From Escherichia coli (GTDB lineage Bacteria; Pseudomonadota; Gammaproteobacteria; Enterobacterales; Enterobacteriaceae), in assembly GCF_003991155.1 (NCBI RefSeq), contig NZ_CP031293.1: 64,000 nucleotides of DNA, one strand, 5' to 3'. The position numbers are program-made. Below, piece by piece: positions 54,501-57,500 of the stretch (positions are counted from its first letter, which is position 1; each line of letters starts with the position of its first letter).

Positions 54501-57500
54501 CCAATCATCTTTTCAGCTTTCAGTTTGATGGCCAGTTGAGTGGCAATCTCTTCCGAGGTCAGATTAAAGCTCTCGCCAGTGACTGAAACAGCGACTGGCC
54601 CCATTAGCACTATTGCACCGCTGTCCAGTTGACGATGGATCGCGTCTTCATCAATCCGCCGGATACGCCCGCTATGGCAGTAATCCACGCCGTCATCGAC
54701 GCCCAGTGGCTGGGCAATAATAAAATTGCCACTGACGACGTTGATATGCGCGCCCTGCAGCGGCGTGTTATTGAGACTCATCGACAGGCGAGCAGTAATA
54801 TCCAGTTGCAATGTTCCCGCAGCCTGCTTCACCAGTTCCAGTGTTTTGGCGTCGGTCACACGTATATTCTTGTGATACAGCGGTTCGTGGTGATGCGCAG
54901 CCAGATTTGCGTCGATCTGCGGACGTGCGCCATAGACTACCACCAGACGGATGCCGAGGCTGTGCAACAACCCGATATCATTAACGATACTGGAGAAATT
55001 CTCATGCTCAATGGCTTCACCGCCGAGCATGATGACAAACGTTTTTCCCCGGTGGGTATTGATATAGGGAACCGAATGGCGGAATCCCTCGACCAACTCG
55101 GTTTTACGTTCCTTTACCACGGCACACCTCTTTGCATGATTATTCGAAATTATTGTATTTTTATTCTGTTTTTTCGCAGGGTGCAAGTGTAAATTTTATG
55201 CGGGAGCGACTTTTTTATCAGTAATACCGTGAATATAAAAAGAATGTTTACCGTTTTATAGATGACAGATTATGCGTCTTTCGCTAAAGTTTCCGGTCAA
55301 ATTGGTCGTTTACTTGTTACACAGCTTAGATTTCTTTTGCTCGGGAGAGGCATGTCAGGATCCAACACTGCAATCAGCCGTCGTCGTTTACTGCAAGGCG
55401 CGGGTGCCATGTGGCTATTGAGCGTAAGTCAGGTCAGCCTGGCTGCGGTCAGCCAGGTCGTGGCGGTGCGCGTCTGGCCTGCGTCCAGCTACACCCGCGT
55501 GACGGTAGAATCAAATCGTCAGCTGAAATATAAGCAGTTCGCGTTGAGTAATCCTGAACGCGTGGTGGTGGATATCGAAGATGTAAACCTGAACTCGGTG
55601 CTCAAGGGGATGGCGGCGCAAATCCGCGCTGACGACCCGTTCATCAAGTCGGCGCGCGTCGGGCAATTTGACCCGCAAACCGTACGTATGGTTTTTGAAT
55701 TAAAGCAAAACGTAAAACCGCAGCTGTTTGCCCTTGCGCCGGTCGCCGGGTTTAAAGAGCGTCTGGTGATGGACCTCTATCCGGCCAATGCACAGGATAT
55801 GCAGGACCCGCTGCTGGCGCTGCTGGAGGATTACAACAAAGGCGACCTCGAAAAGCAGGTGCCGCCAGCACAAAGTGGTCCACAACCGGGTAAAGCTGGG
55901 CGGGATCGTCCGATTGTCATTATGCTTGACCCTGGCCACGGTGGCGAAGACTCCGGTGCGGTGGGGAAATACAAAACGCGCGAAAAAGACGTGGTATTGC
56001 AAATAGCTCGCCGTCTGCGCTCTCTGATCGAGAAAGAGGGCAATATGAAGGTGTACATGACGCGCAATGAAGACATCTTCATTCCGTTGCAAGTACGCGT
56101 AGCAAAAGCCCAGAAACAGCGTGCTGACCTGTTTGTCTCTATCCATGCCGACGCCTTTACCAGTCGTCAGCCGAGCGGTTCCTCTGTGTTTGCGCTCTCA
56201 ACCAAAGGTGCAACCAGTACTGCGGCAAAATATCTGGCACAAACCCAGAACGCCTCGGACTTGATTGGTGGCGTGAGCAAAAGCGGTGACCGCTATGTCG
56301 ACCACACCATGTTCGATATGGTGCAGTCGCTGACCATTGCCGACAGCCTGAAGTTTGGTAAAGCGGTGCTGAATAAGCTCGGTAAAATCAACAAGCTGCA
56401 TAAAAATCAAGTTGAACAGGCCGGGTTTGCCGTACTAAAGGCACCAGATATTCCCTCCATTCTGGTCGAAACGGCGTTTATCAGTAACGTTGAGGAAGAG
56501 CGTAAACTGAAAACGGCGACTTTCCAGCAGGAAGTTGCGGAGTCTATTCTTGCGGGAATTAAAGCGTATTTTGCCGATGGGGCGACGCTGGCGAGAAGGG
56601 GATAATGTTTTTATTTATTCAATGAATTTATATTTCGTTGAATAGATAACATTTACCTGAATATTAGACGCTGGTTTTGTGACTGATGTCGGATATTTGA
56701 ATGTCGGCTTGAAAAATAAGCCGACCATCTCTTTAATTAAGCACAATTCCGTGTAATGTATATGCATTAGTTAATCATCTTGTAACTGTTAAATCAGGCA
56801 AGGCAATGTTTGAAGTAATTATTACTTCTGACGTGCCTTGCCTTTTTTTTTGGAGCTATGGAATGATCATCGAAAAAGTCATGAACAATAATTGTGTACA
56901 GGCATCGATGAATGGACAGGAGGTTATCATTTCTGGGCCTGGCGTCGGTTACAACAAAAAATATGGAATGTCGGTCCCTGAGCATCCGGCTAACAGAGTT
57001 TTTTATGTCAGAAATGAACAAAAAAACAAACTCTATAAATTGATCGAACATGTGGATATTGAGTATGTGTTTGTTGCCGAAAAGATAGTGTACTACGCGG
57101 AGTGTAATCTTGAAAGAAAGTTAAATCCATCGCTATTGCTTATTCTTGCCGATCACATTTCAAATGCAATATCCAGAGTCTCCTCCGGAATACAAATCAA
57201 TAATTTTTTTCTTGAGGAAATCAAAGCGTTGTACAAAGCAGAATATGCAATAAGCCGGGATGCATTAACCATCATCAATGAGCAATTTAGCTTTCAACTT
57301 CCGGATGATGAGATTGGTTTTATTGCATTGCATATTTTAAATAACTATGAAAATTCATCTGATTATGAATCGGTACGGATTATTGAATTATCTCAAAAAA
57401 TCACGGAGATTATCGAGGGTATTTATAACCGAAAGGTGGACAGAAGTTCATTTAACTATTCAAGATTTATGATGCACCTTAAGTATTTTTCTAATCGAGT

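Follow-up and report, generated by a model that had tools for sequence, protein, structure and literature searches.

A short leader at 56778-56851 in a stretch of the Escherichia coli chromosome (64,000 nucleotides of contig NZ_CP031293.1, assembly GCF_003991155.1; below, the window) stands directly before the gene for an antiterminator of the BglG/SacY family, and, going by sequence, it is very probably the switch of a five-gene phosphotransferase system (PTS) operon that is autoregulated, in the positive sense, by antitermination of the BglG/SacY type. A preliminary description of this DNA had read the leader as a ribonucleic antiterminator (RAT) overlapping a terminator, and that interpretation is supported by a CAT-PRD-PRD gene and a gene for a PTS permease (EIICB) downstream of it, by folds that exclude each other, by the conservation of the RAT, and by compensated changes in the terminator. 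The element is an undescribed case of a well-known class, and the mechanism itself is textbook.

The RAT-like hairpin and the terminator it overlaps

The string cttgtaactgttaaatcaggcaaggcaa, in which a likeness to the RNA bound by BglG, LicT and SacY had been noticed, sits at 56779-56806, and the likeness was borne out by a consensus search as well as by a covariance model. The RAT-like hairpin, delimited on the + strand at 56778-56803 by the minimum free energy (MFE) fold of the isolated segment and by these two kinds of match, has the core UUGUAACUG-loop-CAGGCAA, which matches the element bound by the antiterminators of this family. Its lower stem consists of U78.G803, C79-G802, U80-A801, U81-A800, G82-C799 and U83.G798 (positions by their last digits); A84 and A85 are bulged, the top stem is C86-G797, U87-A796 and G88-C795, and the apical loop covers 56789-56794. 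On its own the segment folds at -6.3 kcal/mol into a CUG/CAG top stem, an asymmetric loop of UAA opposite G, and a UUG/CAA stem, i.e., the topology of the ViennaRNA folds of the two E. coli bgl RATs and of clostridial RATs, minus the lower loop. All parts of the conserved RAT core (middle stem, upper asymmetric loop, top stem, and an apical loop of 4-7 nt) are thus present. A different lower stem, pairing C76-A77-U78 with A805-U807-G808 around a 3-nt bulge, was rejected because substitutions in Citrobacter and Atlantibacter break it; it is conserved in neither, and it is also 1.5 kcal/mol worse than the MFE fold.

The consensus TTGTTACTGN6CAGGCAAGACC has a single match in the window, with 3 mismatches, where 0.00 were expected. 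The covariance model was built from seven RATs of other operons with the candidate left out, namely bgl t1 and t2 (from K-12) and RATs that lie beside LicT homologues in Clostridium and Thermoanaerobacterium, and was run over both strands of the window with its filters off. Its top match was 56780-56801, at 18.7 bits and a rough E of 0.003, and the runners-up, all elsewhere, reached at most 14.9 bits; the match is a local one, over model positions 4-26 of 30. The alignment to known RATs that had been suggested thus ranks this site first. Natural RATs can also have the A that the leader carries at the UUGUAACUG position (T-to-A, UUGU[A]ACUG): two RATs in a bgl-type operon of Clostridium have it.

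Folding of 56770-56860, likewise proposed earlier, gave one dominant hairpin, at 56796-56843, of -29.8 kcal/mol. Dinucleotide shuffles averaged -15.1 (z = -4.8), and 0 of 200 folded as well. The hairpin, drawn from folding and from pairing in orthologues, has 21 bp interrupted by two internal mismatches of 1 nt each, and closes in a loop of 3 nt. The arms named in the preliminary description, aggcaaggc (56796-56804) and gccttgcct (56835-56843), are indeed complementary, and the T-run and ribosome-binding site were found where it had placed them: nine T residues read directly at 56843-56851 as the U-tract, the Shine-Dalgarno sequence GGAG at 56852-56855, and the antiterminator ATG at 56863-56865. 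The first T of the run (56843) is able to pair with A56796. With AGGCAAGGCA/UGCCUUGCCU at the base of the stem and 9 U behind it, the structure has the features of an intrinsic terminator. A simple promoter/terminator scan missed it, probably owing to a limit that excludes stems of more than 20 counted pairs, or to the internal mismatches.

The ATG at 56863 was taken as the start from the sequence and from the N-terminus, MIIEKV, which lines up with residue 1 of CAT domains in the homologues. An upstream in-frame ATG at 56806, which would open a reading frame of 293 amino acids, was rejected, since it lies within the terminator stem and the homologues begin with MIIEKV. Since the terminator includes neither GGAG nor ATG, it is not predicted to occlude translation. 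A mini-reading frame of two codons, ATG GAA TGA (56858-56866), overlaps the antiterminator ATG at 56863; it is conserved in E. whittamii, E. coli E69, Citrobacter and Atlantibacter, where it reads ATG AAA TGA.

The overlap of RAT and terminator that had been claimed was found in the folding. Bases 56796-56803 are shared, the 3' strand of the RAT being the first 8 nt of the 5' arm of a more stable terminator, and because both structures use these bases they cannot coexist. With the terminator the leader folds at -28.8 kcal/mol and with the RAT enforced at -16.4, a cost of 12.4 kcal/mol; the same calculation on the E. coli bgl t1 leader gave 9.1 kcal/mol (the comparison with bgl t2 was disregarded, its sequence being truncated). 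When the RAT is enforced, the residual upper hairpin stops 9-10 nt before the U-tract. The terminator being about 12 kcal/mol more stable, termination is the expected default, and a factor that stabilises the RAT would be needed for read-through.

The sequence of events would then run as follows. Transcription would start somewhere in 56727-56777, and by default the nascent RNA would form the hairpin 56796-56843 followed by nine U, so that polymerase terminates before the antiterminator gene. When EIICB transports its substrate, the antiterminator, by analogy with its family, would be freed from the inactivating phosphorylation of PRD1 (on H98 and H157) by EIIB. The active protein would dimerise, and its CAT domain would bind the RAT at 56778-56803 as the RNA emerges. 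Bound in this way the RAT would sequester 56796-56803, leaving the upper hairpin 9-10 nt short of the U-tract, and read-through would carry transcription into the genes for the antiterminator, EIICB and three enzymes. Because the sole RAT/terminator precedes the antiterminator gene, induction would be a positive feedback that needs some basal read-through.

The antiterminator gene and the operon behind a single leader

The gene directly behind the leader (56863-57687, + strand) encodes a BglG/SacY-family antiterminator of 274 amino acids, as identified by Pfam, NCBIfam and structure alignment to LicT. Its CAT domain covers residues 1-55 (PF03123, E 3.6e-14), PRD1 73-160 (PF00874, E 1.3e-21) and PRD2 178-251, and it aligns over its full length to the LicT PRD1-PRD2 structures (E 4e-32), with H98, H157 and H205 conserved as the counterparts of LicT H100, H159 and H207; the protein thus has the CAT domain and two PRDs with phosphorylatable histidines that define the family. 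Its best NCBIfam matches are LicT, GlcT and BglG, and its scores stay below the equivalog cutoff in each case: 227.8/300 for LicT, 181.6/320 for GlcT, 101.8/322 for BglG and 93.5/500 for LacT. The homologues form an Enterobacteriaceae clade of at least 77% identity, then a gap, then sequences of at most 37%, and on these identities the protein appears as an isolated enterobacterial lineage of its family. The gene is under purifying selection, with dN/dS of 0.05-0.11, and is therefore taken to be functional. The UTI89 copy (L015) is 12 nt shorter than the others.

Behind it, and thus linked to the leader as a PTS gene should be, lies the gene for a MalX-like EIICB of 526 amino acids (57719-59299, +), with an EIIB motif NCVTRLRL and no EIIA domain. 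It is of the glucose/maltose family and matches TIGR02004 at 1.2e-161, below the equivalog cutoff. By analogy, EIICB is presumed to be the sugar sensor and the kinase/phosphatase of the antiterminator, and the permease, having no EIIA of its own, would presumably use EIIA-Glc. Homology assigns the three enzyme genes, all on the + strand, to a PatB/MalY-family C-S lyase (59299-60474), a SIS-only KpsF/GutQ-like isomerase (60477-61073), and a D-2-hydroxyacid/phosphoglycerate dehydrogenase-like protein (from about 61136 or 61145 to 62092). In E. coli O111:H8 SF4-1 (L016), EIICB is annotated as frameshifted; the leader and the antiterminator gene are intact.

That there is only one such leader, and none between the antiterminator and the PTS gene, had been part of the preliminary description, and both statements hold: no other credible match of the covariance model lies on the + strand of the operon, a 37-mer spanning the RAT (56776-56812) occurs once per genome, and the spacer between the two genes is 31 nt and free of a RAT. 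The remaining genes overlap or abut or, in one case, are 62 nt apart, and no RAT was found at any of these junctions. The 62-nt spacer, between the isomerase and dehydrogenase genes, holds a small hairpin at 61102-61129 (ACGCCA...TGGCGT), followed by TCTTTG and with no RAT ahead of it, that might act in RNA stability or as a weak terminator inside the operon.

Conservation of the leader and its genomic setting

Leaders and genes were compared in 12 sequences, those of seven E. coli alleles, E. whittamii, E. coli E69, two Citrobacter genomes and Atlantibacter hermannii. Within the block 56782-56801, 19 of the 20 columns are invariant, more than in any 20-nt block of coding sequence, and the nine-T run is the same in 12/12. 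The RAT is nearly invariant even in Citrobacter and Atlantibacter, and this does not reflect low divergence, since dS of the antiterminator gene is 0.19-0.56 among the E. coli alleles and is saturated against these two genera. The alleles of 56863-57687 numbered L014-L019 show this same spread with an identical RAT; such values are far above typical E. coli core-gene divergence, and they suggest that the allelic lineages are old or that the island has passed repeatedly from one Escherichia lineage to another. Of 5426 complete E. coli genomes, 1688 (~31%) carry the block, including 536, UTI89, O25b:H4 and APEC (avian pathogenic E. coli) strains; among these 1688, the 37-mer is identical in 1674 and is found in exactly one copy in 1688/1688, and the 1-kb region with the antiterminator gene is in most of them less than 95% identical.

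The terminator has changed more, and in a way that keeps its pairing. Across nine orthologues it folds at -26 to -30 kcal/mol in each, and 93.5% of its stem cells are paired, against 34-55% in slid controls. At two pairs, G-C has become A-U by changes on both sides: G803-C836 is A-U in Citrobacter, and in Atlantibacter too after a one-base register shift. A U.G has become U-A in O111 strains, and the upper stem in Atlantibacter has been rebuilt with full complementarity. The change of G803 to A suits both folds, since it also turns the RAT wobble U78.G803 into U-A. In a wider hunt for orthologues that might show covariation of the RAT, the genome scan gave only relatives of at least 78% identity. 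An apparent intermediate at 53% identity (P0028) was rejected, being the same E. coli amiC-leader-antiterminator locus in an assembly full of errors (L008, Logan ERR3077528), and the clostridial homologues, which sit in ordinary beta-glucoside or other operons, were not treated as orthologues and served only as RAT seeds.

At its left the window has recD, argA and amiC, and at its right the three tRNA-fMet genes metZWV; K-12 has no more than 73 bp between the amiC stop and metV, the window departs from K-12 exactly at its own amiC stop (56605), and comparison of 56606-63245 with K-12 (L013, 4685-4757) shows the five-gene block, co-oriented on the + strand, to be an insertion between amiC and metV. 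It would be hardly credible that the hairpin and T-run are a plain constitutive terminator, or an insulator at the island edge against read-through from amiC, and that the likeness to a RAT is a coincidence. Such a reading can point to amiC as the upstream gene in E. coli, to the replacement of the K-12 amiC terminator by island DNA, and to the RAT stem, which shows no covariation. Against this, amiC ends 190 nt upstream, with another hairpin (56703-56725) in between; the RAT core is better conserved than coding sequence in which dS is saturated; the RAT is the best match of an independently built model and stands directly before a CAT-domain gene; and the two Citrobacter genomes have a gene other than amiC upstream and yet keep the leader, from about 56727 on, with its operon, from which we conclude that it belongs to the operon and not to amiC. 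The hairpin at 56703-56725 (GTCGGCTT...AAGCCGAC), which has a weak T tail, may be the present terminator of amiC.

Upstream of the RAT, a conserved non-coding block at 56727-56777 (+ strand), recognised by the conservation of its motifs, is presumed to hold the promoter and the start of the 5' untranslated region (UTR). The motifs CATCTC, GTGTA..GTATA and CAT.AGT are kept in Citrobacter and Atlantibacter in spite of saturated synonymous sites, and candidate -10 hexamers are TAATGT (56754-56759) and TATATG (56759-56764). Because the gene upstream in Citrobacter is not amiC, this block, too, travels with the operon. About 85 nt upstream of the RAT, TGTGA-N6-TCGGA (56678-56693) matches the CRP consensus at 8/10 positions; it is conserved within E. 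coli and not in Citrobacter.

Control might instead be exerted on initiation, e.g., by H-NS silencing and CRP, with 56780-56803 acting mainly as an operator or promoter element in the DNA and the hairpin as a leaky attenuator. The leader and the antiterminator gene have 33-40% G+C in a genome of ~51%, the bgl operon is silenced by H-NS, and the upstream region offers the CRP-like half-match and no located promoter, all of which would suit such control. Yet we give it a very small chance of being the main one, since the block, in which each of two stems has both its halves, fits a structural model of RNA, and its sole substitution keeps the pairing in both RNA folds and is compensated on the 3' arm of the terminator. 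Silencing and antitermination coexist in bgl, so that initiation control would be an added layer more than an alternative to antitermination.

Several observations weigh against the antitermination switch that we favour. One is that the lower asymmetric loop of the classical RAT (A3 against A26/A27) and the two G-C pairs that close it (GGA...AAACC) are missing: in place of G1 G2 A3 ... A26 A27 C28 C29 the leader has A U C ... G G C A, which merely lengthens the stem (C79-G802 and U78.G803) into a continuous one. In B. subtilis the lower loop and closing stem set the specificity between antiterminators and RATs, and they are binding determinants in the systems studied (PMC1635312). An Rfam scan of 54000-64000, with E up to 10, placed no family on the leader and matched only the three tRNA-fMet genes and noise, and a consensus promoter scan found no + strand site in the leader. 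In the RAT stem all cells are paired in the 9 orthologues, with one change, of U.G to U-A; it is otherwise invariant and thus gives no covariation, and unvarying stems are neutral on pairing, neither for it nor against it. Lastly, the Pfam match of PRD2 is weak (E 0.0024), and the protein lacks the fourth PRD histidine: LicT H269 corresponds to R268 (codon 57664-57666), an Arg throughout the clade and an Asn in BglG, and activation by HPr through PRD2 may therefore differ from that of LicT.

The operon itself has been catalogued twice, as c3405-c3410 of CFT073 within PAI-CFT073-metV, under 'PTS system, maltose/glucose specific' (PMC2831201), and as region GR19 of APEC BEN2908, with the same five genes (PMC12928451); both accounts catalogue the gene block, the leader is absent from them, and no description of it was found in the literature searched. 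The stretch that follows the amiC stop has 33-46% G+C against ~51% in the flanks. Deletion of c3405-10 reportedly caused a fitness defect (Lloyd et al. 2009, J Bacteriol), and Gordon et al. (2015) reportedly made a genome-wide search for RATs. The leader provides a concrete regulatory model for a widespread accessory operon, carried among others by uropathogenic E. coli, APEC and ST131 lineages, and a fusion of the leader to a reporter would be a direct screen for the inducing sugar and hence for the substrate of the operon. A complete ISApl1 (IS30 family, 1070 bp, 62117-63186), an element that mobilises mcr-1, is inserted past the stop codon that ends the operon's last gene and ahead of the hairpin on the metV side; it is 99.9% identical to plasmid copies and is flanked by a 2-bp target duplication, AT, at 62115-16 and 63187-88, and the site is uninterrupted in WP2-W18-ESBL-08 (L001).

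Comparison with known systems

The nearest comparison is with the bglGFB leader of the same species, where the antiterminator gene also comes first, the RAT core is UUGU-ACUG...CAGGCAA, the 3' half of the RAT overlaps the 5' arm of a terminator with its T-run, and the energies are biased to the terminator to a similar degree; BglG, like the antiterminator described here, has only three of the four conserved PRD histidines. The differences are as clear. In bgl, a second RAT and terminator lie between bglG and bglF, where this operon has its 31-nt spacer; the lower half of the bgl RATs is the GGA...AAACC loop and stem, where the present RAT has a continuous U.G/C-G extension; BglG is only ~25% identical to this antiterminator; and the bgl permease is a beta-glucoside EIIBCA, whereas the one here is a glucose/maltose-family EIICB without EIIA.

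These likenesses raise the question of whether the main reader of the RAT is some other antiterminator in the cell, e.g., BglG, which would make the operon a member of the bgl regulon and not an autoregulated one. The core UUGUNACUG...CAGGCAA is common to both bgl RATs, and cross-talk in the BglG family is documented in B. subtilis (PMC1635312). We nevertheless think this very improbable, as the lower loop and stem that set specificity are wholly unlike those of the bgl RATs, the RAT and the adjacent CAT gene have been inherited together in every genome examined, those of other genera included, and purifying selection maintains the antiterminator gene. Autoregulation by the adjacent gene thus stays the preferred reading, and within it the continuous stem that takes the place of the lower loop may itself confer specificity. 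Island-bearing E. coli presumably carry bgl as well; if they do, the difference in the lower half may insulate the two systems from each other, and this is the only mildly novel aspect. The altered lower half offers a natural experiment in how pairs of the BglG family are kept from cross-talk in one cell. We advance only tentatively, from sequence comparison and with some doubt, the further idea that a RAT without the lower loop, which serves every characterised RAT for specificity and contact, and a divergent CAT domain (at most 37% identity outside the clade) might form a structurally distinct, orthogonal RAT/CAT pair that coexists with BglG without cross-talk and controls c3405-c3410, a block associated with extraintestinal pathogenic E. 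coli.

Among Gram-positive systems, B. subtilis LicT and GlcT are the best family matches of the protein, at 228 and 182 bits. The genes licT and glcT have no RAT of their own upstream. Clostridial LicT homologues, whose RATs also carry the UUGUAACUG variant, have 33-37% identity with the protein. In a Clostridium sp. LicT-type operon (L011) there are three RATs (5799-5826, 6866-6895 and 7074-7103), the first ahead of the antiterminator gene and the others, in tandem, between that gene and the EIIBCA gene. So far as sequence can tell, the lower part of the present RAT is unlike both the 1x2 loop of LicT, SacT and SacY and the triple of the GlcT type (PMC1635312).

In layout, the closest parallel is nagY-nagE of E. 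faecalis, which also has the antiterminator gene first, a 5' UTR whose only RAT overlaps a rho-independent terminator, and a glucose-family permease; that operon is autoregulated, and compensatory mutations have preserved its terminator (PMC9981650). A further precedent of an antiterminator-first, single-leader, autoregulated operon has been described in sacXY (PMC9981650). The nagY-nagE system is Gram-positive, with a 5' UTR of 172 nt and a RAT that is little like the consensus, and NagY also controls hylA (PMC9981650); in the E. coli operon, by contrast, the RAT core is near the consensus, and there is one per genome.

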